Notes: generated by a model not told the origin, from the letters alone. Positions 5,257-54,043 are shown, counted from the first letter of the stretch. The stretch: DNA of 64,000 nucleotides from Candidatus Nomurabacteria bacterium (GCA_023898605.1 CP060230.1:131944-195943); one strand, 5' to 3'. A program made the numbers and translations.

Positions 5257-5643
5257 ATGCAAGAAAATAAAATCACAATCATCATAAATAAACCAATTGA
5301 AGAAGTCTTTGAATTTACAACAAATCCAAAAAATACTCATTTATGGATTCCTTCAATTGTTGAAGAAGTTGCAGAAGAATATCCTCCTCAAATTGGAACA
5401 AAATATAAAAACAGAGGAAATGATTCTGATTGGGATTTCTATAAAGTTGTAGAATTTCAAAATAACAAAATATTCACGCTTTCTGATTTAGAAGATAATT
5501 ATCATGTTAAATACACTTATCGTAAAATTGATGATAATCAAACAGAAATGGAATATTTTGAATGGATGGAAAACGGAGAATTAAATAATCCATTTACTGA
5601 GGATATAATTCAAAAATTAAAGTCAGTTATGGAATCCAATTAA
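5257..5643 (+). CDS. SRPBCC-fold (polyketide-cyclase/AHSA1-like) small protein
   Basis: 128 aa, the only plus-strand gene in a minus-strand block; ...KPIEEVFEFTTNPKNTHLWIPS... resembles SRPBCC N-termini. Enclosed by two nested perfect 17-bp inverted repeats. Confidence 0.5.
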   Translation: MQENKITIIINKPIEEVFEFTTNPKNTHLWIPSIVEEVAEEYPPQIGTKYKNRGNDSDWDFYKVVEFQNNKIFTLSDLEDNYHVKYTYRKIDDNQTEMEYFEWMENGELNNPFTEDIIQKLKSVMESN

Positions 5644-5644
5644 C

Positions 5645-5717
5645 AGTTTTGGTGGGCTTTTCTAATTATTGACTCCCTTTGGTCGATATTTAATAATATA
5701 TGTTCTTAAATGTAAAA
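5645..5717. repeat. Right arm of nested inverted repeats (inner 5645-5661, outer 5701-5717)
   Basis: Reverse complement of 5210-5226 and 5188-5204 respectively. Confidence 0.85.
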
Positions 5718-5719
5718 CT

Positions 5720-5860
5720 CTGAAATTTTCCTTCGGAACGTTGCACTCTGGCTCGGGGCTAACGCCCTCACTTAACACAGAATATGCGGTTTCGCTCGTG
5801 CCCCTGCTCGACTAATATTTGCCTCCGCTATCGTTACGGCAAACACCAGATATACTGAAA
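5720..5860. other. GC-rich (~52%) non-coding block, possible structured RNA of unknown class
   Basis: Compositional outlier in AT-rich DNA, with local hairpins (gggc-taac-gccc) and no ORF. No tRNA T-loop and no SRP or tmRNA signature recognised. Confidence 0.25.
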
Positions 5861-5862
5861 CG

Positions 5863-7356
5863 TTAAATTAATTCTTTCAATAATTCTTGTACAAGTGCTG
5901 GATTTGCACTACCAGCAGTTTCCTTCATAACTTTTCCTACAAGTGACATAAGAGCATTTTCCTTTCCACCCTTATATGTTTCTACAACATCTTGGTTTTC
6001 AGAAATTACTTTTTCTACAATAGCCTTGAGTGCTTCTGGATCATTTTTCTGTATAAGACCTTTTTCTTCTGCAAAAGTAGCTGGGTCTAGGTCACTTTTT
6101 GTCATTTCTATAAGTATGTCTTTTGTACTTCTAGAAGAAAGAGAGCCATCTTTGAACATCTTTATAAGAGAGGAGAAACTTTTATCGTTTGGTATTTTTG
6201 CTTCAGGATCTTTTGCCAAAGTACCGACAAGATCAGAAGTTATAAAGTTTGAAGCTGTTTTTATGAGCTCTTTGTCAGAATCAAAATCAGCTATAACTTT
6301 CTCGAAGAACTCTCCGAGACTTAGATTATTTATATAACTTTCTATATCTTCGTCTTTTATACCAAACTCGTTTCTATATCTATTTCTCTTTTCTTCTGGT
6401 AATTCTGGAAGATTTTTTTCTATTTCTTTTATATCGAAAAGAGTATGAAGTTTGAATTTGGGAATATCTGGTTCTGGGAAATATCTGTAATCAGACGCAT
6501 TTTCTTTGCTTCTTTGAGAGAAGGTTTTTCCTTTGTTTTCGTCCCAGCCACGAGTTTCCTGCCTTATTTCTCCATCTCTTAGCATTGTATGTAGCTCTTC
6601 CATTCTGTCGAATTCGTACAAAACTGCTCTTTCCATGCTCTTGAATGAGTTTAGATTTTTGACCTCTACTTTTGTACCTAGAACAGATTGGAATTTATCC
6701 AAATCTGTTCGGCCGATCAATCCTTCGGATTGATTTAGGCCTTCAAGTTCGAGTTTCTTTGAGCTAGTTATAGATATGTTTGCTTCAACTCTCATCTCGC
6801 CTTTTTCCATGTTTGCTTCAGATACACCCAAATACCACAGTAGTAGTTGTAGATCTCTTGCAAACTTTCCTGCTACTCTTATCGCCTCGTCTTTATCATC
6901 GAAGGTATGAGGTTCTGTAACTAGCTCCATAAGCGGCACGCCAGCCCTGTTTAGATCAACTAGAGTTTTTTCGTCACCATGTTTTGACGTACCTGTATCT
7001 TCTTCTAGGTGTATTCTTGTTATGTCGAAACCAGACAGGTGTCCTCCTGAAACTATAGGGTATTTGTACTGGCTTATCTGATAACCTTTTGGTATGTCTG
7101 GATAAAAATAGTTTTTTCTATCAAATTCAGTAAAGTCTGCAATATTTCCTCCTATTGCAAGACCAACCTTTATAACATTTTTTATCGCCTCTTCATTTGG
7201 AACAGGCAGAGTTCCTGGTTGAGCGCTACACACAGGACATATGTTTCTGTTGGGTTTTTGTTCATCTGGGTCATTCTTACAAGAACAAAACATCTTTGTT
7301 TTAGTAGAAAGTTCCGCGTGGACCTCTAGTCCAATTGTGTAATAAAATTTCTCCAT
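5863..7356 (-). CDS. gatB: Asp-tRNA(Asn)/Glu-tRNA(Gln) amidotransferase subunit B
   Basis: N-terminal YYTIGLEVHAELSTKTKMFCSC...CPVCSAQPGTLPV; 497 aa. Confidence 0.95.
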   Translation of the reverse strand: MEKFYYTIGLEVHAELSTKTKMFCSCKNDPDEQKPNRNICPVCSAQPGTLPVPNEEAIKNVIKVGLAIGGNIADFTEFDRKNYFYPDIPKGYQISQYKYPIVSGGHLSGFDITRIHLEEDTGTSKHGDEKTLVDLNRAGVPLMELVTEPHTFDDKDEAIRVAGKFARDLQLLLWYLGVSEANMEKGEMRVEANISITSSKKLELEGLNQSEGLIGRTDLDKFQSVLGTKVEVKNLNSFKSMERAVLYEFDRMEELHTMLRDGEIRQETRGWDENKGKTFSQRSKENASDYRYFPEPDIPKFKLHTLFDIKEIEKNLPELPEEKRNRYRNEFGIKDEDIESYINNLSLGEFFEKVIADFDSDKELIKTASNFITSDLVGTLAKDPEAKIPNDKSFSSLIKMFKDGSLSSRSTKDILIEMTKSDLDPATFAEEKGLIQKNDPEALKAIVEKVISENQDVVETYKGGKENALMSLVGKVMKETAGSANPALVQELLKELI

Positions 7357-7405
7357 AATTTATAAGGCTATCATAGCAAAAAACCTAGATTTTCTCCAGC
7401 GGGCC

Positions 7406-8341
7406 TTATACCTTATAAAGTAAGAAATTTATGATGTCCAAAGAGTCTATAAACCTACCCTCTTTTGTCGATCCTAGTATGACTGCTATGTATTCTTCTA
7501 GTGGACCTGTCTCAAAGGCTATTATCAAGTTGCCACCAGCAAGGTTTGTAAGTCCGGTTTTTGAGAAAAGTAGCGACGGATATTTTTCTGTTATGTAGTT
7601 TGTATTTTTGAAAACAAGGTTAGGCTTCCCTATTGGCCCAACTGATATTGTCGGCTGGCTTGTTTTGTATATATAGTCGCTTATTTTAATGAGAGAATAT
7701 TTTGCGAGTTTTACCATATCTAGAGCTGTAGAATATGCTCCTGGAAAAACCGAACTCTCATCTAGTCCAGTTTCGTTGAAAAATACCGTATGCTCCATGC
7801 CTATCTCTGCTGCTCTCTGATTCATGATAGCTACAAAAGACTCATCTTCTCCCAAATGATATTCTTCCGATGTCCTACGGAGTGCGTGAGCTATATCGTT
7901 AGAAGAAGTCACAAGAAGTAGCGATATCAAGTCTTCCTTCTTCCACAAGTCTCCAGCGACAAGTCCGTGATCATCCGGCATGGCTAGGTCTTCGTATGTT
8001 ATCTGAATAGGAGCTCCGTCTGGAATTATTTCGTCTGCGACTATCGCGGTCATAAGTTTCTGTAGAGAAGCAACTGGTCTTTTTTCTTCCTCATTTTTTG
8101 AATAAACGATACAGTCGTCACTTTTGTTGTATATAACAAAACTTTCTGCCAGAAGATTTAGTTCAGCTTCTTCTTTGCAATATTTTACCTCTACAGGGTC
8201 TTCTTTGTTTATGATTGTTAGTGGTGTACCGGTAAGATTACTTTTTGTGACATTTGCAACCACGGTCGAAACACCCAACACAAATATGATCAATATACAC
8301 ACCAAAAATATCTTGATGTTTTTTGGGTTATTATTCTCCAT
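7406..8341 (-). CDS. D-alanyl-D-alanine carboxypeptidase (PBP5/S11 family)
   Basis: SxxK (ASLQKLMTA), SxN (SSND) and KTG (SKTGLT) motifs; N-terminal TM anchor. Confidence 0.8.
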   Translation of the reverse strand: MENNNPKNIKIFLVCILIIFVLGVSTVVANVTKSNLTGTPLTIINKEDPVEVKYCKEEAELNLLAESFVIYNKSDDCIVYSKNEEEKRPVASLQKLMTAIVADEIIPDGAPIQITYEDLAMPDDHGLVAGDLWKKEDLISLLLVTSSNDIAHALRRTSEEYHLGEDESFVAIMNQRAAEIGMEHTVFFNETGLDESSVFPGAYSTALDMVKLAKYSLIKISDYIYKTSQPTISVGPIGKPNLVFKNTNYITEKYPSLLFSKTGLTNLAGGNLIIAFETGPLEEYIAVILGSTKEGRFIDSLDIINFLLYKV

Positions 8342-46963: not shown

Positions 46964-48361
46964 TTAGATTCCCTCGATTATATCGATATTGGCCTGTATA
47001 GCAGCTGCTTTTGCCATAACCTGATTACCGTAAAATGTGTTTGGAGGACTTTTTGTGTCGCAAACTCGGCCAGAATAATATCTACAAGCAGCGTTTCTCT
47101 CGGCTGTATAGGTCTGAGCTCCAGCGCCTAGGTCTTGCAAATACATAGAAGTAGCAGTTATGGCGTGATAAGGAATCCATGGGTCAGCAACAGCAGCTCC
47201 TACAGAAGCGGCTATTCTGTTCTCAAAGATTTTCCATGTAGAAGGTATAAACTGTGATGGCCCCATAGCACCACCGTACCCTACTCCTCCTATAGGACAA
47301 GAAACTGGTGTGTTATAAGGATCTCTACCGGTTTTAGCTGTTATGTCCAAGAAAGGTGTAACGTCTCTGGTTGGCTTCATAACGTTTGCAAATGGTGTTC
47401 CTGTGTTTTTACCAACTCCAGAACCAGTTACAGGGTCTTTTAGATAACAAGAACCGATATTTGCTCCGTATGCTGATTCCTGTTCAAGTATCGCAAGCAC
47501 AAGAGCTGGTCTAACGCCTGTTGTTTTAGAAGCAAGATTTGCATAGTCTAGGGCATCTCCAAACGGTATCGCAGCAGTGTCACGAAGTGAGAATAGCGCA
47601 GCACGAAGTTGTGCAGCTCTAGCTTGTCTCTCTGAAAGGATTTTCTGATATTCTGATTCTTTGTTTTTACTTATAGAAAGAAGTTTTTGTTTTTCTGATT
47701 CACTCAACTCTATCTGTTTCTTGGACTGTTCTAGTTCATACTTGGCATCTAGTTCAGCGTTTTGTTTTTCTTGTAGACTTTTCTTTTCTATTTCTGTTTT
47801 GCTTTTTACGTTTTGTAGATTGTCTAGAGAATCCTTGAGAGCGACTCTTATACTCGCATAAGAATCGTTGTCTGAATAATACTCAGAAAGAGACTCGTCA
47901 CCCAAAATTATGTGTAGAATTGTCGTATCTTTGTATTCGTTTGTTTTGCGAAGTAGTTCTGCAATAGAAGACTCCTCTCTTCTTATTTCTTCTTCTAGAG
48001 AAACTATAGTCGAGTTTTTCTGAGATATGTCTTTGGATATATTGTTTATAGCGATAGTTTTTGCTTTTACTTCTGCTTTTGCTTTCTCGATTTTGGAAGT
48101 TAGGACATTGATTTCACCTGTTATGCTTCCAGATTCTTTTTTCTGTGTAGAAAGAGTATTTTCCCATTCAGCAATTTCTTTCAAAAGAGCGTTGTATTCT
48201 GCTTCTAGTTTTGCTCTTTCGGCTTCTTGGGTTGATGTAGCTTTGACATGATTTGTTATGTCAAAAATATTTGGCAAAACCAAAGAGGCAAGGATCATGA
48301 TTCCCGCCACTTTTGGAATGAATTTTATAGAATTGTGAAGATTACTCTTCATTTTCGACAT
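46964..48361 (-). CDS. Coiled-coil protein with C-terminal lytic-transglycosylase (SLT/lysozyme-like) domain
   Basis: N-terminal TM, ~250 aa of heptad-like E/K/L-rich sequence, then ...LVLAILEQESAYGANIG... (catalytic E-S motif of SLT domains). Confidence 0.6.
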   Translation of the reverse strand: MSKMKSNLHNSIKFIPKVAGIMILASLVLPNIFDITNHVKATSTQEAERAKLEAEYNALLKEIAEWENTLSTQKKESGSITGEINVLTSKIEKAKAEVKAKTIAINNISKDISQKNSTIVSLEEEIRREESSIAELLRKTNEYKDTTILHIILGDESLSEYYSDNDSYASIRVALKDSLDNLQNVKSKTEIEKKSLQEKQNAELDAKYELEQSKKQIELSESEKQKLLSISKNKESEYQKILSERQARAAQLRAALFSLRDTAAIPFGDALDYANLASKTTGVRPALVLAILEQESAYGANIGSCYLKDPVTGSGVGKNTGTPFANVMKPTRDVTPFLDITAKTGRDPYNTPVSCPIGGVGYGGAMGPSQFIPSTWKIFENRIAASVGAAVADPWIPYHAITATSMYLQDLGAGAQTYTAERNAACRYYSGRVCDTKSPPNTFYGNQVMAKAAAIQANIDIIEGI

Positions 48362-48974
48362 CTTGTTTACCTTTAGATTCTACCTCAATCTGTGATAAAT
48401 CGACATCTGTACTAGTCTCTTCTGATTCTTCTTCTTGTTTCGAAATTGAGGCGATTATATCCTCGTCACTGTGCATATGAGACACACCTTTTGGAAGCTT
48501 TATATCGCCTACGCTTATGTGTGAATCTACACTAGCTAGTGAAGATATATCTACCATTATCTCATGTGGAAGATCTTTTGGAAGACCTGATATGTTCATA
48601 TCGTGCATAACCTTTACCAAAACTCCTTCTCCAGCCCTTACTGCAGGAGAAACTCCTTCAAATTCAAGAGGAATAGAAACCTCGATAGGTTTATTCATAT
48701 CTACTACCAAAAAATCGACGTGTGCTGGTGTATTTCTAACTGGATCAAACTGAACATCATGTATTAGAACATCTAGTTCTTTTCCGCCGTCATTTAGCTT
48801 TATAGTTGTGGATTCTCCAGCTTCAGCAAAAATCTTGTTGAATTCAGTCTGTTTTACTGAAATACTCTTTGTTTCTTTGCCTTGACCATAATAAATAGCT
48901 GGAATATATCCTTGTTTTAGAAGAGCATCTCTCTTCTCATTTGTTCTTTCTTTTGCTTCTATTGTTACTGTCAT
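48342..48974 (-). CDS. rplY: 50S ribosomal protein L25 / general stress protein Ctc
   Basis: ...GYIPAIYYGQGKE...VQFDPVRNTPAHVDFL... bL25 beta-barrel plus an acidic C-terminal extension. Confidence 0.85.
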   Translation of the reverse strand: MTVTIEAKERTNEKRDALLKQGYIPAIYYGQGKETKSISVKQTEFNKIFAEAGESTTIKLNDGGKELDVLIHDVQFDPVRNTPAHVDFLVVDMNKPIEVSIPLEFEGVSPAVRAGEGVLVKVMHDMNISGLPKDLPHEIMVDISSLASVDSHISVGDIKLPKGVSHMHSDEDIIASISKQEEESEETSTDVDLSQIEVESKGKQDVENEE

Positions 48975-49015: not shown

Positions 49016-50764
49016 TCAAGAAGAGTGGGCGTTTGTCACTCCAAAAGTCATATGATCCTTGAAAAACTCCATATTTGTTCTGACTTTTTTGTTTGGATTG
49101 AATATATTTTGTGGATCAAATATATCTTTTGTTTCTTCGAAAAGATTGATGACTTCTCTGTCGTACATCATAGATAGATACGGTGTTCTAACGATACCGT
49201 CGTTGTGCTCTGCCGTTATAGATCCTCCGTATGACAAAACGAGTTTATAAACCTTGTCAGAAAGTTCCAAAACCACATCTTTGAGCGTTGGATCTTTTGG
49301 ATCTACAAGAGGAATTATGTGGAAATTTCCGTTTTCAGCGTGGCCTGCGATTGTGTAAACAAGATTTGGATAAGCCGCAACGAGCTCATTGACCTTGGGC
49401 AAGAATTCAGAGAGATATTCTGACCTAACAATAACATCGTCGATAAACGGAGCAGTTTTTTTACCCGCAACGTGCTTTCTTAGGAGTGCGAAGCTATCAC
49501 GTCTCATCTGCCAGTACTTTTCTGCTTCACGAGAAGACTTGGTAACTCTAACTCTTAGGTTTAGATCCTTGATTACTTCTTTTGCTGCTCGAGCTTTTTT
49601 GTCTATTTCTTTTTCATCTTTGCCGGCATATTCAGAAAGAATGATAAGTTTTGGAACACCGCCAAAGAGTGTCATCAAAACTTCTGGCAAGAATTCTAGA
49701 CCGAACTTGAGTGTAGAAAAGAATCCCTTGTTTTTTACAAAATCTTTGAAGAACTTAACTGCCAACCAAAAAGTTTTGTCATCATAAGACTCGATACTTA
49801 TAGGCCCTGTCGCTAGAAGTCTGTCTACAATCTCACCTATATTGTTGAAATCTTTCAAGAATACAACCATTAGTTTTGATTTTGGAATAGCGTCTACAAG
49901 ATAAAACTTGATCTTCGTAACAGCACAAAGTGTGCCCTGTGATCCAACAACAAGCTTACATAGATCGAAAACGTCTTCCATCTCGTCGCCACTTTCTGAT
50001 TTTGTAAGTACATTCCACAAGTAATATCCTGCAGAGTTTTTTGTGACGTTTGGCTTGGCAGCGGCTATAGTTATCTCGTTTGATTTGATAAGTTCATACA
50101 TTCTTTTGTATATTTCACCCTCTGCTGTTTGTTCTGTGATTTTTTTGTAAAGCTCTCTTCTTGTTATAGGTTTTATTGTATATATATTTCCATCACGCAA
50201 AACAACTTCAAGCTCTGCTACATAGTCTTCTGTTTTTCCATAGCGAAGTGTAAGTTCTCCACCAGAGTTATTTCCAACCATACCACCAAGAGCGTTGAGA
50301 GACTTGGAGGCTGTGTAGCATGGGAGAAGTAGTCCCTTGTCTTTTGCTAGAGGTTCAAAATCTCGATAATAAACACCTGGGTCAACAACTGTATATCCTG
50401 TGACTTTCACTTCTTGTGAGCATGGAAAAACAGGTAGGATTTTTATAGGTTTTTTTAGTTTTTCTATAACATGAACTTTGTTCATGAATCTTGTTGTGTC
50501 CAAAACAAAAGATTCCCCCAATGGTCCACCAGACATACATGTTCCAGCGGCTCTCATCGTTATATTGATCTTCTGATCATGAGGAAGATTTCTATTTTGA
50601 TCATTTATCCATTTTGTGAGGTTCGATACGTCTTCGCTATCTTTTGGAAAAAGAACTATTTGGGGTTTGATAGAAAATATACTTGCATCATGACTGTATT
50701 TCTCCAATGTTTCATCTGAATTTTCTATGTCACCTTTCCAAAACTTTTTTATTTCTTGAATCAT
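49016..50764 (-). CDS. FAD-linked oxidase (PCMH-type FAD-binding + C-terminal oxidase domain; GlcD/D-lactate dehydrogenase-like)
   Basis: LEKYSHDASIFSIKPQIVLFPKDSEDVSNLTKWIN...RAAGTCMSGGPLGESFVLDTTRF; C-terminal ...HAENGNFHII.... The start is set at the internal Met (MIQEIKK); the longest ORF (to 50875) would overlap the RT gene by 65 nt. Confidence 0.75.
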   Translation of the reverse strand: MIQEIKKFWKGDIENSDETLEKYSHDASIFSIKPQIVLFPKDSEDVSNLTKWINDQNRNLPHDQKINITMRAAGTCMSGGPLGESFVLDTTRFMNKVHVIEKLKKPIKILPVFPCSQEVKVTGYTVVDPGVYYRDFEPLAKDKGLLLPCYTASKSLNALGGMVGNNSGGELTLRYGKTEDYVAELEVVLRDGNIYTIKPITRRELYKKITEQTAEGEIYKRMYELIKSNEITIAAAKPNVTKNSAGYYLWNVLTKSESGDEMEDVFDLCKLVVGSQGTLCAVTKIKFYLVDAIPKSKLMVVFLKDFNNIGEIVDRLLATGPISIESYDDKTFWLAVKFFKDFVKNKGFFSTLKFGLEFLPEVLMTLFGGVPKLIILSEYAGKDEKEIDKKARAAKEVIKDLNLRVRVTKSSREAEKYWQMRRDSFALLRKHVAGKKTAPFIDDVIVRSEYLSEFLPKVNELVAAYPNLVYTIAGHAENGNFHIIPLVDPKDPTLKDVVLELSDKVYKLVLSYGGSITAEHNDGIVRTPYLSMMYDREVINLFEETKDIFDPQNIFNPNKKVRTNMEFFKDHMTFGVTNAHSS

Positions 50765-50800
50765 AAAATGAATTATATCATGCAAATTTTCTAAAATAAA

Positions 50801-50821
50801 AAGCTGGTTTTTACCCAGCTT
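50801..50821 (-). terminator. Intrinsic terminator at the RT gene end (aagctgg-gtaaaaa-ccagctt followed by TTTATTTT on the minus strand)
   Basis: 7-bp stem whose loop contains the RT stop codon; T-run at 50786-50798. Confidence 0.55.
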
Positions 50822-51809
50822 TGTTGTGAAAACTTTCTCGAAAGATTTCATAATTTTCGACAATCCAATCGTCATCTTTTGTCCAACTATCCACGTTTTT
50901 TGGCACCAGCTTTTTGAATATAGCCATCATGCCGTTGATTTCAGGAAAGTTAGATGGGTCATTCAACCTACCGTTTTCATCCAAACCATAAAGGGCTACG
51001 TGAAGTAATCCTTTTATTTTGGCTCGATAATCACGTGGCAAGAAAAGTTCTCCTTTTGAAACGGTATTTCTGATACCAATTCCATTAATGCTCGCGCCGT
51101 GGTTTTTTGTTAGATCAATTACTTTTGTTTTCCTTTCGGAAATCGTAAATCCCTGATTTCTAACAAAACCAAGTATTGCTTTTCTTTTTCTTTTGCCAAA
51201 TGGCTCTGGTGAAGAGAAGATCAAGTCGTCTCCCATCCTAGAGTATCTGGCATTATATTTATGCGCCAATAAAGCAAGATATATATCGAGCTTATAATGA
51301 GCATATATATTGAAAAGCCAAGGAGAAACAGGAAGCCCCTCTGCAAGAGTCATGTTCGGATCAGTACAATACAAAATCATAGATATAGTCCAATCGATTA
51401 CTGGATTAATCCCATTAATTTGGCAAAATATTTCAACGTAAATACTTGCTTCAATAAGATCCATACTATGATATGCAGACTTTAGATCTGTAACAAACCA
51501 GTGTCTAGGGTAAAACTTTCTGTTTTCTTTGTGATGCTGAAGGGCGGCAATGGGTGGAGTACTGATTCCCTTTATCCACTGATATGCATAAGGAAGATTC
51601 TTTTTATTGTAAACCGGGCTCAATACTTCTTTCATGATATCGTGCATGATTCGAAGAGTTTCGTTTGGTTTACATATAACCCTAACTTTTCTTTTACCAG
51701 AAGAAGAATATGTGACTATTTCTTCTGTTTTATAACCTGGTAAAGGACTTTTGTTTTGTAGTAAAAAATGATCGGTTGGAAAATCAATTGATAATTGTTT
51801 TTCCGACAT
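50811..51809 (-). CDS. Retron-type reverse transcriptase
   Basis: RT motifs close to retron Ec86: A FVTDLKSAYHSM (cf. NIDLEDFFPSL); B GLPVSPWLFNIYAHYKLD (cf. GAPSSPKLANLICSKLD); C YSRMGDDLIFS (cf. YTRYADDLTLS); D FTISERKTKVI (cf. LVINSKKTCIS); thumb ASINGIGI (cf. KVTGLVIS). 332 aa, no extra domains. Confidence 0.8.
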   Translation of the reverse strand: MSEKQLSIDFPTDHFLLQNKSPLPGYKTEEIVTYSSSGKRKVRVICKPNETLRIMHDIMKEVLSPVYNKKNLPYAYQWIKGISTPPIAALQHHKENRKFYPRHWFVTDLKSAYHSMDLIEASIYVEIFCQINGINPVIDWTISMILYCTDPNMTLAEGLPVSPWLFNIYAHYKLDIYLALLAHKYNARYSRMGDDLIFSSPEPFGKRKRKAILGFVRNQGFTISERKTKVIDLTKNHGASINGIGIRNTVSKGELFLPRDYRAKIKGLLHVALYGLDENGRLNDPSNFPEINGMMAIFKKLVPKNVDSWTKDDDWIVENYEIFRESFHNKAG

Positions 51810-51835
51810 TGTTAATTTTCTATTTATTTGACATC

Positions 51836-51864
51836 TTTATATAAAAAAATAATGTTCATGTCAA
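51836..51864 (-). promoter_or_regulatory. Putative RT-proximal promoter TTGACA-17-TATAAA (minus strand)
   Basis: Reverse strand reads TTGACAtgaacattatttttttaTATAAA about 30 nt upstream of the RT ATG. Confidence 0.4.
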
Positions 51865-51871
51865 TTTATAA

Positions 51872-51898
51872 AAAAGTCCGTGCATTGCACGGACTTTG
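51872..51898 (-). terminator. Hairpin gtccgtgc-att-gcacggac with flanking A/T runs between the putative ncRNA and the RT gene (terminator/attenuator)
   Basis: Perfect 8-bp stem; the minus strand is followed by TTTTTAT. Confidence 0.5.
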
Positions 51899-51899
51899 A

Positions 51900-52195
51900 A
51901 TGAGTTGTGGTACCCTTGTAGAAAATTTTAGATTAGTTTTGTTTGCTTTGTTTTGTTTTTTTGGCTTTAGGCGAAAAAACTCATCAGATTTCGTCTTTCG
52001 TCATAAAATCACGTTAAAGACTAATCTTTGTGAATTGTCATTGCAAATCTCATTTCTAAGATTTACTACTCTGGACATCGATCCAGATATTTTGATTGAT
52101 TGGCTTTAGCCAAAAAAACAAAACTACCTATGATTTAATCTCCCTTCAAAATATACAAAACTATTACTAAAAGATTCAAGGTACCACGTCACCGA
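51900..52195 (-). ncRNA. Candidate retron msr/msd non-coding RNA
   Basis: Upstream of and co-directional with the RT. 8-bp inverted repeats gtggtacc (51907-51914) and ggtaccac (52180-52187) are positioned like retron a2/a1. A perfect 16-bp long-range inverted repeat (51950-51965 gttttgtttttttggc with 52109-52124 gccaaaaaaacaaaac) encloses a ~140-nt hairpin-rich segment. ORF-free. Confidence 0.4.
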
Positions 52196-52230
52196 GATTC
52201 GCCTCTGGTGAAAATATCTTTTTCATATTG

Positions 52231-52259
52231 ATTGTAATTATAAATAAAAATATTTGCAA
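52231..52259 (-). promoter_or_regulatory. Putative promoter for the ncRNA/RT unit: TTGCAA-17-TACAAT (minus strand)
   Basis: Reverse strand reads TTGCAAatatttttatttataatTACAAT, about 35 nt upstream of the a1 repeat. Confidence 0.4.
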
Positions 52260-52279
52260 ATATTTTTTCCACTTTTATC

Positions 52280-54043
52280 CTACTCCAAAATTGCCTTTAT
52301 TCTCCTGACTCCAGCAGACGATGCTTCTTCTTTTTTTATCTTGAAGACCTTGGGCGTCCCATCGGAATTGGCCCCTAGTTCACCAGTGTTTTCTACGTGA
52401 GGTCCACCACAAAACTCTATGCTATATGGATTTCCATTTTCGTCTTCTATAAAGTAGACCGATACTATATCTGGATATTTCGCGCCAAACTCCATTTCTG
52501 CGCCAAGTTTTTCTGCTTCCTCTTTTGGCATTTCTCTTTTTATAACCTTGTATTTCTTCTGTATTGCTTCATTCACCAATCTTTCTACCTCTTTCTTTTC
52601 TTCGTCTGTCATCTTGCGATCAAACGCAAAGTCCATCCTTAGTCTATCTTCTGTTATGTTTGAACCTTTTTGTTTTACCTCATGCCCCAACACTTCCTGA
52701 AGTGCTTTTAGTAGGAGGTGGTGAGCAGTGTGAAGCTTTATGGTTTGTGGTTCATGGTTTACTAGACCGCCCTTAAACATACCAGCCGAAGAACTTTGCG
52801 AAAGATCTTTGTGTTCTTTCATTTTGTTTTCGAAATCTGTCATATCTACAGACACACCTTTTTCTTTTGCGAGTTCAAGTGTCATTTCGATAGGAAAACC
52901 GTATGTTGTAAAAAGAGTAAATGGATCTGTTCCCTTCTCAAACTCTTTTAGTCCAGCCGATAGAGTTTCTCTAAACTTTGTTTCTTCTTTTTGTATAACT
53001 TCTTTTATTTTTACAAGGTCTATATTCTCGTATATATCACCGTATAGATGAACAAATTCTTCTACTATTTCCAGAAGCGCTCCTTCTCTCATGCCAATCT
53101 TTTCGCTTATCCTAACAGCTCTTCTTATAAGTCTTCTTAGTATGTACCCTCGTTCATTGTTAGATGGTAGAACTCCATCAGATATAAGAAACATCGCAGT
53201 TCTAGCATGGTCGGCTATTATCCTTTTTGAAGAAAGGTCGTCAACACTTGTCATAGACTCTATCTTTTCAAAAACTTTTTCAAACAAGTCTGTATCATAA
53301 ACACTTCTTTTGTTTTGTACGGTTGCAAGAAGTCTCTCGAATCCCATACCAGTATCTATACCCAGAGTTTCTGACTTTGTAAGTTTTGCTTCACCTTTGT
53401 CTAGTTTTTCTCTAGAACCGTCGCACATATACTCGTTGAAAACGATATTCCAAACTTCCACATCTTCACCAGCTGCGTTTTTACAATATATTTCTGTTGT
53501 CGGTCCACATGGTCCACTATCTCCAGTTGGTCCCCAGAAAACATCTTCTCCATCTTCTCTTATGTCTTTGATTCCAAGTTCAAGCCATATATCGTGCGAC
53601 TCGGTATCTTTTGGAACAAAGTCATTGCCACGGAAGTAAGTAACATAAGAAATCTCTAAACCAAGCTCTTTTGTGATAAAGTCATGTGCGTAGACTATAG
53701 CTTCGCGTCTTCCATAACCACCCTTGGGCGAGGCAGACTCGCTGGGCCTATAGCCAAAAGAAAAGTTTCCGAGCATTTCGAAGAAAGTAAGGTGTGTAGA
53801 GTCTCCTACTTCTTCTATATCGCCTGTTCTTACGCATTTTTGGATACTAACTACGTTTTTTGACCCGAAGTCTTTGGTAGCGTCGTCTGGATGACTATAA
53901 TAGAGCTTGAATTGTTGCATCCCGGCTGTTGTAAACAAAACAGTAGGATCAGCCTCTGGGACTAGAGAAGAAGACGGTATCCTCTTGTGACCCTTGCTGA
54001 AAAAGTATGCCAAGAACTTCTGTCTTATGTCGCTTGAATTCAT
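52280..54043 (-). CDS. alaS: Alanine--tRNA ligase (catalytic + tRNA-binding + editing domains; lacks C-Ala domain)
   Basis: N-terminal FLAYFFSKGHKRIPSSSLVP...PTVLFTTAGMQQFK; editing HxxxH (HTAHHLL) and CGGPHV motifs; ends after ...SAGVRRIKAILE at 587 aa. Confidence 0.9.
   Translation of the reverse strand: MNSSDIRQKFLAYFFSKGHKRIPSSSLVPEADPTVLFTTAGMQQFKLYYSHPDDATKDFGSKNVVSIQKCVRTGDIEEVGDSTHLTFFEMLGNFSFGYRPSESASPKGGYGRREAIVYAHDFITKELGLEISYVTYFRGNDFVPKDTESHDIWLELGIKDIREDGEDVFWGPTGDSGPCGPTTEIYCKNAAGEDVEVWNIVFNEYMCDGSREKLDKGEAKLTKSETLGIDTGMGFERLLATVQNKRSVYDTDLFEKVFEKIESMTSVDDLSSKRIIADHARTAMFLISDGVLPSNNERGYILRRLIRRAVRISEKIGMREGALLEIVEEFVHLYGDIYENIDLVKIKEVIQKEETKFRETLSAGLKEFEKGTDPFTLFTTYGFPIEMTLELAKEKGVSVDMTDFENKMKEHKDLSQSSSAGMFKGGLVNHEPQTIKLHTAHHLLLKALQEVLGHEVKQKGSNITEDRLRMDFAFDRKMTDEEKKEVERLVNEAIQKKYKVIKREMPKEEAEKLGAEMEFGAKYPDIVSVYFIEDENGNPYSIEFCGGPHVENTGELGANSDGTPKVFKIKKEEASSAGVRRIKAILE

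Follow-up and report, generated by a model that had tools for sequence, protein, structure and literature searches.

What does a reverse transcriptase (RT) of retron type do in the tiny genome of Candidatus Nomurabacteria, a member of the CPR, where its gene adjoins its own folded RNA gene of about 350 nt? The locus lies in a 64-kb (64,000-nucleotide) stretch of DNA, here referred to as the window, and had been described in an earlier note as a retron-like unit with an Ec86-like RT. That description stands with regard to the retron-superfamily RT, the structured and conserved RNA with its terminal repeat, and the promoter and terminator layout, which is kept in orthologs; the locus departs from a classical retron in that there is no effector and that the RNA forms a transcription unit of its own. 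We consider it fairly probable that the locus represents a self-contained two-gene module of retron type, consisting of a small-RNA gene and a retron-superfamily RT behind its own promoter. The orthologs compared are the window and four related Nomurabacteria loci (L001, L003, L006 and L007).

Reverse transcriptase gene and its classification

The following features were assigned to the RT gene:

50811..51809, minus strand: RT gene, retron superfamily, 332 aa (ORF, Pfam, profile and fold matches)
51836..51864, minus strand: RT promoter, TTGACA (51864-51859), 17-nt spacer, TATAAA (51841-51836)
50790..50822, minus strand: RT terminator, 8-bp stem with four G-C pairs and a T-rich tail

The proposed 332-aa RT is borne out by a match to Pfam RVT_1 (E=2.8e-10, residues 39-231), the sole domain found by Pfam, in agreement with the claim that no domain is fused. 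All RT motifs quoted before (SPWLFNIYAHYKLD, YSRMGDDL and ISERKTK) are there, as are the catalytic residues D108, D194 and D195 and the motif-D residue K227, and the ORF is intact, with every invariant and nearly invariant residue of the family being kept. The second promoter (TTGACA-17-TATAAA) can be read directly in the sequence and was omitted by our promoter scan because the scan demands T at the last position; all four orthologs possess its counterpart, with TTGAC(A/T), a spacer of exactly 17 nt and a TA-rich hexamer. An intrinsic terminator at the end of the RT gene was recovered by scan (50822-50800 plus T-run) and overlaps the stop codon.

Both sequence profile and predicted fold indicate that the RT is nearest to, and a member of, the retron RT superfamily. 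In PADLOC, the 25 top RT matches were all to retron RT models (best, RT_III-A, 3e-19), and in NCBIfam retron_St85_RT reached 3.7e-17, compared to about 6e-6 for Drt2 and group II. The 17 best Foldseek matches in the PDB to an AlphaFold model of the RT (pLDDT 84.9) were all retron RTs. Searched against the PDB, a profile of 60 family members matched retron RTs at 6e-33 to 2e-23 (Ec83 and Ec86 at about 1e-32); the same profile gave 8e-13 for group II, 7e-10 for DRT2, 6e-6 for DRT9 and 5e-5 for DGR RTs. A grouping of the RT with those of group II, DGR or Abi elements, which the earlier note had named as an outcome that would speak against a retron, was hence not observed, the E-values for retron RTs being better than those for the next group by some 20 orders of magnitude. 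The designation 'Ec86-like' is too narrow, as all retron types match about equally and the type-level score is not reached (best NCBIfam retron type score 62.6 bits, cut-off 235).

Weak matches of the RT to group II, DRT2, DRT3 (Drt3a, 13.2 bits, cut-off 200) and Cas-RT models might point to a different class of retroelement (group II intron, DGR, CRISPR-associated or Abi/UG), in which case the RNA would be a piece of an intron, the template repeat of a DGR or a mere cis-regulatory leader. Palm and fingers are common to all RTs, which accounts for these matches. We regard such an origin as highly improbable: retron RTs are the best matches in both sequence profile and fold, the RT comprises only 332 aa with no extra domain, the RNA matched neither group II introns nor any other Rfam family up to E ≤ 10, no second, diverged copy (variable repeat) of the RNA region occurs in the 64-kb window, and no relatives of the RT were found in IMG/VR viral contigs. 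In addition, the RNA has its own promoter, terminator and covarying helices (see below) and is thus not a simple leader. Two specific candidates were rejected individually. For a group II intron, the interval 50500-52600 yielded no model match at E ≤ 10 and the orthologous loci none at the gathering threshold; for a DGR, blastn of 51810-52279 against the 64-kb window returned the self match and intramolecular matches only, and the DGR RT E-value was 5e-5.

The RT carries variant motifs, with M/LGDD replacing YxDD, ING replacing VTG and AxxxH replacing NAxxH. The Tyr position of YxDD is occupied by Leu in the close clade, including a near-identical strain, and by Met in the window, and its replacement could alter processivity or activity. 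In retron RTs, region X (NAXXH) lies between RT2 and RT3 and region Y, with the VTG triplet, in RT7, their most conserved residues being His and Gly, respectively (Mestre et al. 2020, PMC7736814). Within the present family, H93 of region X is invariant in 60 members and the consensus is N-x-x-x-H; the close clade has lost this Asn, and so has the window, which reads A89-L-Q-H-H93. The region Y triplet aligns as I-N-G (INGIG, residues 241-245), Thr being replaced by Asn throughout the family, and G243, which is nearly invariant, aligns with the Gly of VTG in Ec83 and Ec67.

A separate RNA gene upstream of the RT

The gap upstream of the RT extends over 470 nt (51810-52279) and contains:

52231..52259, minus strand: sigma-70-like promoter of the RNA gene, TTGCAA (52259-52254), 17-nt spacer, TACAAT (52236-52231)
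51868..52224, minus strand: predicted ncRNA transcript, about 355 nt (fold and ortholog covariation)
51868..51897, minus strand: intrinsic RNA-gene terminator, a G+C-rich stem of 12 bp followed by a T-run

As proposed, this leader is free of conserved ORFs. The frame of a mechanical 69-aa antisense ORF (51900-52109, plus strand) is not kept in relatives, and among contiguous frames in the five orthologs none is conserved as stop-free on either RNA strand: open stretches of 40-80 codons do occur in the RNA region, in frames and strands differing among the five, and the sense strand of the window RNA is closed to translation over the conserved core. The promoter upstream of the RNA was found by scan with 9 of 12 matches, about 20 nt past the alaS stop codon; all four orthologs have TTGAC(T/C/A), a 16-17-nt spacer and a TA-rich hexamer, likewise just past the alaS stop. 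The 5' end of the transcript is placed according to the -10 box and its 3' end at the terminator T-run. The hairpin plus T-run previously noticed between RNA and RT consists of 12-bp arms (51897-51886 / 51884-51873) and a T-run to 51868, and in the orthologs all 7 of its modelled stem pairs covary, with 100% of cells paired (helix 7). This terminator also matched the terminator portion of unrelated leader models.

The minus strand of 51860-52240 folds at -112 kcal/mol (z = -9.0; not equalled by any of 100 shuffles). In the five orthologs the order of the RNA elements is identical, 89% of cells are paired and 29 of the 58 modelled pairs show double (compensatory) changes, the window helices having been aligned by hand to fit the model, so that their pair counts lean towards the structure. 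Controls were clearly different, with 0 of 500 shuffles as good and 29-43% paired when the alignment was slid; an nhmmer model built from the four relatives did not find the window RNA. Between L006 and L012, the RNA region of about 410 nt is free of substitutions and the adjacent RT differs by 2.2% of nucleotides (15 synonymous and 5 non-synonymous codon changes). Taken together, the gap reads as a genuine, separately promoted and terminated RNA gene with a predicted transcript of about 355 nt, and comparison of the orthologs indicates that its helices are maintained by compensatory substitutions.

Predicted architecture of the RNA

The elements of the RNA are:

52198..52204, minus strand: leader segment L (AGGCGAA), complementary to L'
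52178..52187, minus strand: a1, 5' arm of the terminal stem, GTGGTACCTT, pairing with 51916-51907
52108..52124, minus strand: 5' arm of the long A/U-rich stem, including the P5 GGC core (17-nt perfect inverted repeat)
52071..52086, minus strand: hairpin Pa, CTGGATCGATGTCCAG, with conserved loop AUCGAUGU (MAFFT alignment and covariation)
52043..52066, minus strand: hairpin Pb, 10-bp stem with GAAA loop (MFE fold)
51978..51985, minus strand: internal segment T', GATGAGTT, complementary to the 3' tail
51969..51975, minus strand: internal segment L' (TTCGCCT), adjoining T' and complementary to leader L (helix 1)
51950..51966, minus strand: 3' arm of the long A/U-rich stem (inverted repeat and fold)
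51907..51916, minus strand: a2, 3' arm of the terminal stem, AGGGTACCAC, pairing with a1
51899..51906, minus strand: 3' tail T, AACTCATT, directly after a2

The inverted repeat that the earlier note had counted among the retron hallmarks, gtggtacc (52187-52180) / ggtaccac (51914-51907), is present and can be lengthened to 10 bp if one G-U pair is included. Taken alone it is not above chance, its 8-10 bp scoring like the best repeats of shuffled sequence, and it gains weight only because the orthologs keep it with covariation: in all five, the GUAC/GUAC core is invariant and the flanking pairs covary (helix 2). Directly 3' of a1, where the branching G would be sought, no invariant G is present, the residue being G in the window, A in L001, G in L003, C in L006 and T in L007, with the helix ends uncertain; Gs near a1 comprise the invariant G of the GUAC box and a UUAG after leader L in three of four relatives.

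The strong internal hairpin was also recovered, with 17-bp perfect arms (52124-52108 / 51966-51950) and a score of 19.5 against a shuffled maximum of 10.5, and an equivalent A/U stem with a GGC/GCC helix is found in the orthologs (helix 3). Unusually, the tip of this hairpin carries several further hairpins that are conserved. Pa is among the few short stretches aligned by MAFFT across all five loci, with 5 of 9 stem pairs compensatory and 96% of cells paired (helix 4), and for the hairpin homologous to Pb in the orthologs, compensation is seen at 4 of 9 pairs and pairing in 98% of cells (helix 5). Two long-range pairings were detected in addition. L:L' is a 7-bp Watson-Crick match (shuffle p ~0.03 given the positional constraint), and its counterpart in the orthologs joins UAUGCUGUU to AACAGCAUA at the homologous position, one G-C pair being replaced by U-A in L003. 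T:T' is a match of 7-8 bp (51906-51899 with 51985-51978; shuffle p ~0.01) and covaries in the orthologs, with C-G / U-A / A-U at one position and A-U / G-C at another (helix 6); the tail reads AACUCAU in the window, L001 and L003, and the covarying GACUUAU and AACUAAU in L006 and L007, respectively. Added to the terminal stem, the long A/U stem and the two tip hairpins, the two long-range pairings would make a three-way-junction pseudoknot, a fold that to our knowledge has not been described for retron ncRNAs.

The RT family comprises 255 representative clusters at E ≤ 1e-10, mostly from CPR. Several members have terminal stems of 12-14 bp about 300 nt apart, ending some 30 nt before the RT, and a tail-to-internal pairing analogous to T:T' is seen in distant members.

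Genomic context and inheritance

The neighbours named previously, alaS (52280-54043), bL25 (48342-48974), bL31 and prfA, are all present as judged by orthology, together with genes for an FAD oxidase and an SLT-domain protein. The RT is directly flanked by the RNA gene and alaS on one side and the FAD oxidase gene on the other, and the gene order alaS-RNA-RT-...-FADox-L25 is common to the window, L001, L003 and L012; in all four orthologous loci the module lies between alaS and an FAD oxidase gene. Identity between relatives and window amounts to 49-52% for the RT, 53-55% for bL25 and 54-60% for AlaRS; the module thus diverges at the rate of its housekeeping neighbours. In the sister genome L077, a stretch of 1475 bp corresponding exactly to RNA plus RT is cleanly missing. 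The comparison indicates that the RT-RNA pair is inherited vertically at a single chromosomal site and can be lost as a unit.

The effector question

An effector is found in about 75% of retrons, forming a tripartite system (PMC8632793). At the window locus there is neither an effector gene nor a fused effector domain; thus, the unit is not a classical tripartite retron. In relatives, the RT is directly followed by a 117-119-aa protein with two transmembrane segments (two-TM) and/or a protein of 214-230 aa, and two-TM proteins are known retron partners (PMC7736814). The window copy might accordingly be a decaying remnant of a tripartite retron that has lost these effector genes, as a tblastn search of the entire 64-kb window with the proteins encoded downstream of the RT in relatives gave no match and the RT has Met in place of Leu at a catalytic-motif position. 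We judge this to be rather improbable, since the RT ORF is intact with its family residues kept, the RNA helices are retained by compensatory change, and neither small protein matches a PADLOC or Pfam family above threshold. Furthermore, L077 retains both small genes in the absence of RT and RNA, with synonymous/non-synonymous ratios of 17/5 and 47/27, comparable to 42/20 for bL25, indicating purifying selection; hence they are neither toxins requiring the RT nor dependent on it. As the window lineage is the outgroup, the two genes may never have been present there.

The two-TM gene, which follows the RT in L003, L012 and L007, recalls type IV retrons (Retron-Eco6/Ec48, with a two-TM effector). 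In contrast to these, it is absent from the window and L001 and is kept in L077 without RT and RNA; its product of about 118 aa has no PADLOC match, and the RT does not score best against the type IV model.

Comparison with known systems and proposed mechanism

The module resembles the retrons Retron-Eco1/Ec86, Ec83, Ec78/Eco7 and Eco2/Ec67 in RT sequence and predicted fold, in an RT of about 300-330 aa with thumb, no extra domain and the region X His and region Y Gly kept, and in a structured ncRNA directly upstream on the same strand, with complementary 5' and 3' segments and a long hairpin. It differs in lacking an effector, in its longer RNA, with a predicted transcript of about 355 nt in which some 280 nt separate a1 from a2, in the pairing of leader and tail with an internal strand, in having L/MGDD rather than YADD, in lacking a type-level HMM match, and in its CPR host with a fixed, vertically inherited rather than patchy locus. 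Some differences count against a retron reading, namely the missing invariant G at the branching position after a1, ING for VTG, A89 for the Asn of NAxxH and the loss of the Tyr of YxDD. The strong terminator and second promoter that separate RNA and RT count likewise, classical retrons being described as co-transcribed (PMC7736814).

Another type of system comes into view when protein partners are considered. The RNA gene, with its own promoter and terminator, and the RT are the only conserved components: no neighbour protein is conserved across about 30 CPR loci of the family, and none is present in the window. DRT2 (UG2) and DRT9 share this two-component layout, in that a structured ncRNA encoded upstream serves the RT as scaffold and template and further proteins are not needed. 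The RT-RNA particle might be the whole of a two-component defence system in which triggered cDNA, either repetitive or homopolymeric DNA or DNA becoming a gene, is itself the effector. By analogy, the closed pseudoknotted RNA core and the Leu/Met at the motif C Tyr may recall enzymes copying a short internal template, a likeness that derives from telomerase motif C. We nevertheless consider a DRT2/DRT9-like system unlikely. With 332 aa, the RT is about 100 aa shorter than the chains of these systems (425-499 aa), model and profile scores place it outside the UG/Abi clade and some 20 orders of magnitude closer to retron RTs (Drt2 25.8 bits, cut-off 390), no open (neo-type) frame is conserved in the RNA, and, apart from ordinary A/U-rich stems, the RNA has no conserved long tract of U or A alone that could serve as template. 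UG38 is a small, CPR-restricted group of UG/Abi RTs (Mestre et al. 2022, PMC9226505) and, compared by description, shares with the module the stand-alone RT and the occurrence in genomes of Parcubacteria and other CPR. The profile of our RT family aligns with retron RTs end to end, thumb included, which argues against UG/Abi membership.

Based on the self-contained retron-type module, the following mechanism might be envisaged. The RNA would fold as a rod closed by a1:a2, and L and T, which flank this stem, would pair with the contiguous internal strand T'-L' to give the pseudoknotted junction. The RT would bind the upstream RNA, probably via those elements whose sequence is conserved, namely the GUAC box in the terminal stem, the loop of Pa (AUCGAUGU) and Pb, and, in analogy to retron RTs, may copy part of it, most likely the long hairpin enclosed by a1 and a2, into a small satellite cDNA. 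As for priming, one might guess that, as in retrons, a G close to the junction provides its 2'-OH. Since the locus encodes no effector in cis, the particle of RT, RNA and possibly cDNA would act alone or together with something encoded elsewhere.

Judged by its sequence, the module is a mainly CPR, two-component variant of the retron kind that matches no defined retron type. An effectorless pair, vertically inherited at a housekeeping locus, would thus represent a stripped-down variant of a known bacterial DNA-making system.

A retron-type RT among housekeeping genes

The 332-aa reverse transcriptase (RT), which is identical to USN94992.1 (Candidatus Nomurabacteria, CPR/Patescibacteria), and the RNA gene upstream of it are located between alaS on one side and a gene for an FAD-linked oxidase on the other, with bL25, an SLT-domain protein, bL31 and prfA farther out.

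Genes of the RNA-RT locus
52280-54043: alaS
51868-52224, minus strand: predicted RNA gene
50811-51809, minus strand: RT, 332-aa ORF
49016-50875, minus strand: FAD-linked oxidase, mechanical ORF of 619 aa

The same synteny (alaS, a gap of 400-550 nt, RT, FAD oxidase, bL25, SLT, bL31, prfA) occurs in four relatives (proteins P0002-P0005, about 50% identity). The mechanical oxidase ORF overlaps the 3' end of the RT; however, oxidase orthologs have 579-581 aa and the N-terminus MxEEIKKFxKGD, and the true start in the window is therefore the ATG at 50764, just beyond the RT terminator. In the window, the RT is followed directly by its own terminator and then by the oxidase gene. A further example of an RT among translation-related housekeeping genes is found at the distant family locus L011 (3103-3890), where smpB and a tmRNA gene (Rfam RF00023, 122.6 bits) lie immediately after the RT.

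RVT_1 is the sole Pfam domain of the ORF (E=2.8e-10), and all RT motifs quoted in the earlier note were found in it. The best PADLOC matches were all retron RT models, led by RT_III-A (3e-19), and among NCBIfam models retron_St85_RT scored 3.7e-17 versus about 6e-6 for Drt2 and group II intron RT, its 62.6 bits lying far under the family cut-off of 235 bits. When 1.84 billion representative proteins were searched exhaustively, 255 clusters matched at E<=1e-10, rising to 1210 at E<=1e-3; the majority are proteins with about 300 aa and 30-40% identity. A profile built from 60 family members matched the solved retron RTs (Ec83, Ec86, Ec78/Eco7, Ec67, Kva2) at 6e-33 to 2e-23, as compared to 8e-13 for group II intron RT, 7e-10 for DRT2, 6e-6 for DRT9 and 5e-5 for DGR RT. 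Similarly, the 17 best Foldseek PDB matches of an AlphaFold model of the RT (pLDDT 84.9) were retron RTs. The retron affiliation proposed in the earlier note is thus borne out by PADLOC, NCBIfam, the 60-member profile and Foldseek, all of which rank retron RTs first, whereas the narrower label 'Ec86-like' had to be abandoned: when scanned singly, the 60 members scored much alike against many retron types (best about 1e-33), and not one gave a type-level match. According to reviews, DGRs dominate CPR RTs (PMC8632793); a small UG/Abi RT group, UG38, also exists in CPR (PMC9226505). No account of CPR retrons emerged from our literature search. A DGR reading of the unit was rejected because a variable repeat is absent from the window. 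That the enzyme belongs to another RT class altogether we regard as highly improbable.

Retron RTs are defined by NAXXH in region X, with His most conserved, and the VTG triplet in region Y, with Gly most conserved (Mestre et al. 2020, PMC7736814). In the present family, H93 is invariant within the consensus N-x-x-x-H, the Asn being lost in the clade of the window, and the region Y triplet of the RT is ING with a nearly invariant Gly. The catalytic residues D108, D194 and D195 as well as K227 are invariant. The YxDD motif is YLDD in the wider family, LGDD in the Nomurabacteria clade and MGDD in the window. The Met at the Tyr position is encoded by codon 192 (51234-51236), and MCA9353723.1, a MAG protein from a near-identical strain, differs from the window RT solely by Leu at this codon; Leu is also present in the four orthologs (R-L-G-D-D). 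Judged by these comparisons, the RT is a member of the retron superfamily from a clade not typed before.

The upstream RNA gene

The region 51860-52240 (minus strand) is predicted to fold with -112 kcal/mol (z = -9) and contains a perfect 17-bp inverted repeat (52124-52108 / 51966-51950), which scores 19.5 versus at most 10.5 in shuffles. No Rfam family was found for the RNA, either in the window region at permissive thresholds or in 12 related loci at the gathering threshold. Similarity between the gap of the window and those of the four relatives is limited to short elements, and nhmmer with the RNA core of the four relatives returned the relatives only, missing both the window RNA and distant loci. 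The case for homology of the window RNA is therefore built on its architecture and on short conserved elements, the order of which is identical in all five loci (window and four relatives).

Order of elements from alaS to the RT in the five loci
1. Promoter, immediately downstream of the alaS stop in the four relatives and about 20 nt past it in the window
2. Leader L, all five loci
3. Terminal-stem arm a1, GUAC invariant
4. Variable hairpin, all five loci
5. Long A/U-rich stem, all five loci
6. GGC/GCC helix, all five loci
7. Hairpin Pa, loop AUCGAUGU
8. Hairpin Pb, all five loci
9. Internal strand T'-L', contiguous
10. Return arms of the stems, all five loci
11. Arm a2, again with GUAC
12. 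Tail, AACUCAU (GACUUAU in L006 and AACUAAU in L007, two loci of related genomes)
13. Terminator, G+C-rich
14. Promoter before the RT, TTGACA-17-TAnnnn
15. RT

Accordingly, the structured RNA which the earlier note had placed upstream of the RT is a real, constrained gene. In an alignment of the helix strands of the five loci 89% of the cells are paired and both-sided changes occur in 29 of 58 pairs, counts that lean towards the structural model since the strands were picked by eye; none of 500 shuffles reached any of the pairing measures, and sliding the partners lowered pairing to 29-43%. RNAalifold, run on an unsupervised alignment of the four relatives, likewise found Pa, Pb, a1:a2 and the terminator. 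The loci L006 and L012 of two nearly identical genomes differ by 2.2% of nucleotides in the RT (15 synonymous and 5 non-synonymous codons) but are identical over the approximately 410 nt that extend from the alaS stop to the end of the RNA terminator, which, at the sequence level, is independent evidence of constraint on the RNA.

The GUAC boxes (52184-52181 and 51913-51910) are palindromic and invariant on both strands of the terminal stem, and the Pa loop includes the 6-nt palindrome AUCGAU (52081-52076; AUCGAC in locus L003). Palindromic loops can mediate RNA-RNA kissing dimers. An ATG-initiated ORF of 69 aa (51900-52109, plus strand), unusual at 32% G+C, runs antisense to the ncRNA and thus in cDNA sense; as neither its frame nor its strand is kept in the four orthologs, it is probably a by-product of A/U-rich palindromic stems. 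A neo-like ORF reading of the RNA was rejected because no frame is conserved. An attenuator reading was rejected by inspection, as no position of the tail (51906-51899) is shared with the terminator stem (51897-51873).

A predicted pseudoknotted three-way junction

The terminal stem is bordered by L on one side and by the tail T on the other, and each of the two is complementary to a part of the contiguous internal strand T'-L'. The strands L-a1, a2-T and T'-L' would therefore make three helices at one junction, a predicted three-way junction equivalent to an H-type pseudoknot stacked on the terminal stem. For the window alone, and given the positional constraint, shuffle p values are about 0.01 for T':T and about 0.03 for L:L'.

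Pairings of leader and tail in the window and related loci (L001-L007) and of the tail in distant family loci (L008-L039)
Window, T':T: GAUGAGUU (51985-51978) : AACUCAUU (51906-51899)
Window, L:L': AGGCGAA (52204-52198) : UUCGCCU (51975-51969)
L001, T':T: GAGUU : AACUC
L001, L:L': UAUGCUGUU : AACAGCAUA
L003, L:L': AUUCUGUU : AACAGAAU
L006, T':T: AAGUCUA : UGGACUU
L007, T':T: UAGUUC : GAACUA
L008, tail: UCAGCGG : CCGCUGA
L038, tail: GAGAAAUUAG : CUAAUUUUUC
L039, tail: GAGAAGAUCC : GGGUCUUCUC

Distant members appear to follow the same pairing logic with unrelated sequences, the tail being complementary to a site 18-49 nt 5' of the a2 arm. At five such loci (L024, L028, L030, L031, L039) a terminal stem of 12-14 bp spans about 300 nt and ends about 30 nt before the RT start. 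To our knowledge, pairing of leader or tail with an internal segment has not been described for retron ncRNAs.

RNAs of about 300 nt also lie upstream of the RT at L008 (4780-5000), L011 (1860-2067), L030 (3570-3900) and L036/L038 (3590-3910). These are richer in G+C and often share, behind the terminal stem, a tail resembling CGCUGAAA; a terminator before the RT is usually lacking, and none of these RNAs is in Rfam. Around about 35 family RTs, z-scores of crude fixed 300-nt windows up- and downstream suggested a strongly structured upstream flank in many members, not in all. At L009, the upstream gap has a length of just about 127 nt, and downstream of the RT there is a non-coding, G+C-rich stretch of about 780 nt (6949-7730), with a raw MFE of -343 kcal/mol over 800 nt, yet z = -1.1 for its first 300 nt; in some members the partner RNA may be located downstream of the RT.

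Inheritance and neighbouring small genes

In a scan of one genome per GTDB species, the closest relatives of the RT were nearly all CPR (Paceibacterota, Saccharibacteria, Parcubacteria, Campbell-, Kerfeld-, Zambryski-, Harrison- and Andersenbacteria), with weaker matches in Melainabacteria, Planctomycetota and Anaerolineae. No relatives were found in IMG/VR viral contigs, and a metagenome scan for additional close relatives returned a duplicate of L007 only. The window shares 49-52% identity with its relatives in the RT, as compared to 53-55% in bL25 and 54-60% in AlaRS; within the group of relatives, RT identity (67-78%) runs parallel to that of bL25 and of the oxidase. As identities track those of housekeeping neighbours and the insertion site is fixed, sequence comparison indicates long vertical inheritance of the RNA-RT unit with occasional clean loss. 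Defence islands are typically patchy and mobile in distribution, and that of the unit does not look like this pattern.

In some relatives, the RT is followed by a gene for a two-TM protein of about 118 aa (L003, L012, L007) and by one for a protein of 214-230 aa (L001, L003, L012).

Small genes after the RT
L003: 7081-7437, two-TM protein; 7488-8159, 214-230-aa protein
L012: 4963-5316, two-TM protein; 5368-6060, 214-230-aa protein
L001: 7108-7752, 214-230-aa protein

Pfam and PADLOC gave no family above threshold for either protein, and tblastn of both against the whole window was negative. A word-index search with the 223-aa protein gave two near-identical matches only, one of which led to L077, a related locus with flanks about 91% identical to those of L003 and the order alaS, 4 nt, two-TM gene, 223-aa gene, oxidase. 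L077 (3589-3594) is without exactly the 1475 bp of RNA gene and RT (L003 5604-7078), and neither a remnant nor a target-site duplication is visible at the junction. Synonymous/non-synonymous codon differences between L077 and L003 are 17/5 and 47/27 for the small genes, similar to the 42/20 of bL25; both small genes are under purifying selection in the RT-less L077. As they are kept without the RT in L077, and the RT without them in the window, they are unlikely to be RT-controlled effectors. No recurring neighbour family was found across about 30 more distant CPR loci, and in the window a cis effector gene for the RT is absent; it is possible that a retron core is here partnered by something encoded elsewhere.

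Discussion

Retrons are regarded as three-part toxin-antitoxin-like defence systems that move between genomes, and their RTs reverse-transcribe part of their RNA into small DNA. The present unit agrees with them in RT clade, region X, a1/a2 and the long hairpin, but has no effector; its region Y triplet is ING, with a nearly invariant Gly, in the place of VTG. It consists of a catalytically complete retron-type RT and of a cognate RNA that is under strong constraint and has a promoter and a terminator of its own; that such a unit is a decaying remnant appears improbable.

Most likely, the unit descends from retrons and resembles them in its working. The RT would then recognise the invariant elements of the RNA, i.e. 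the GUAC box, the Pa loop and Pb, and copy a portion of it into a small DNA, the most plausible template being the long hairpin inside a1:a2. In the five loci, a1 is followed by G, A, G, C and U, and candidate priming Gs might be provided by the GUAC box or by the L-a1 linker, which contains UUAG in three relatives. We consider it fairly probable that the unit is of retron type and that part of its RNA is copied into DNA. Self-sufficient DNA-producing defence, as in DRT2 or DRT9, is an unlikely alternative, for while the two-component layout is common to these systems and the unit, the RT clade is different. A non-defence role of the RT-RNA particle is also possible.

Beyond a retron-like working, it might tentatively be speculated that a retron-derived RT family, found mostly in CPR, was turned by domestication into an RT-RNA particle that is fixed on the chromosome and has no effector, its cDNA synthesis differing from that of classical msDNA. 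The pseudoknot-closed RNA core and the Leu/Met variant of motif C might serve this distinct synthesis, for example by repeated copying of a short internal template or by trigger-dependent synthesis with the DNA product as the active agent. If true, RT systems that do without a protein effector would have arisen by a third route, independently of both DRT2 and DRT9.

In bacteria whose genomes measure about 0.6 Mb, an RT of retron type occurs with its RNA but without an effector, both co-diverge with ribosomal-protein and tRNA-synthetase neighbours, and RNA and RT can be lost together with the flanking genes unaffected. This raises the question of the role of a retron core alone, and whether it has a function beyond toxin guarding. 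The RNA family, about 300 nt in length and absent from Rfam, is undescribed, and with its invariant GUAC box, conserved loop and predicted three-way-junction pseudoknot it is a compact target for structural and biochemical work; the unit could also offer a minimal RT-RNA pair for DNA-writing tools. We regard the finding as of moderate to high significance, since it singles out a retron core retained on its own through evolution in minimal genomes, together with an undescribed RNA family.
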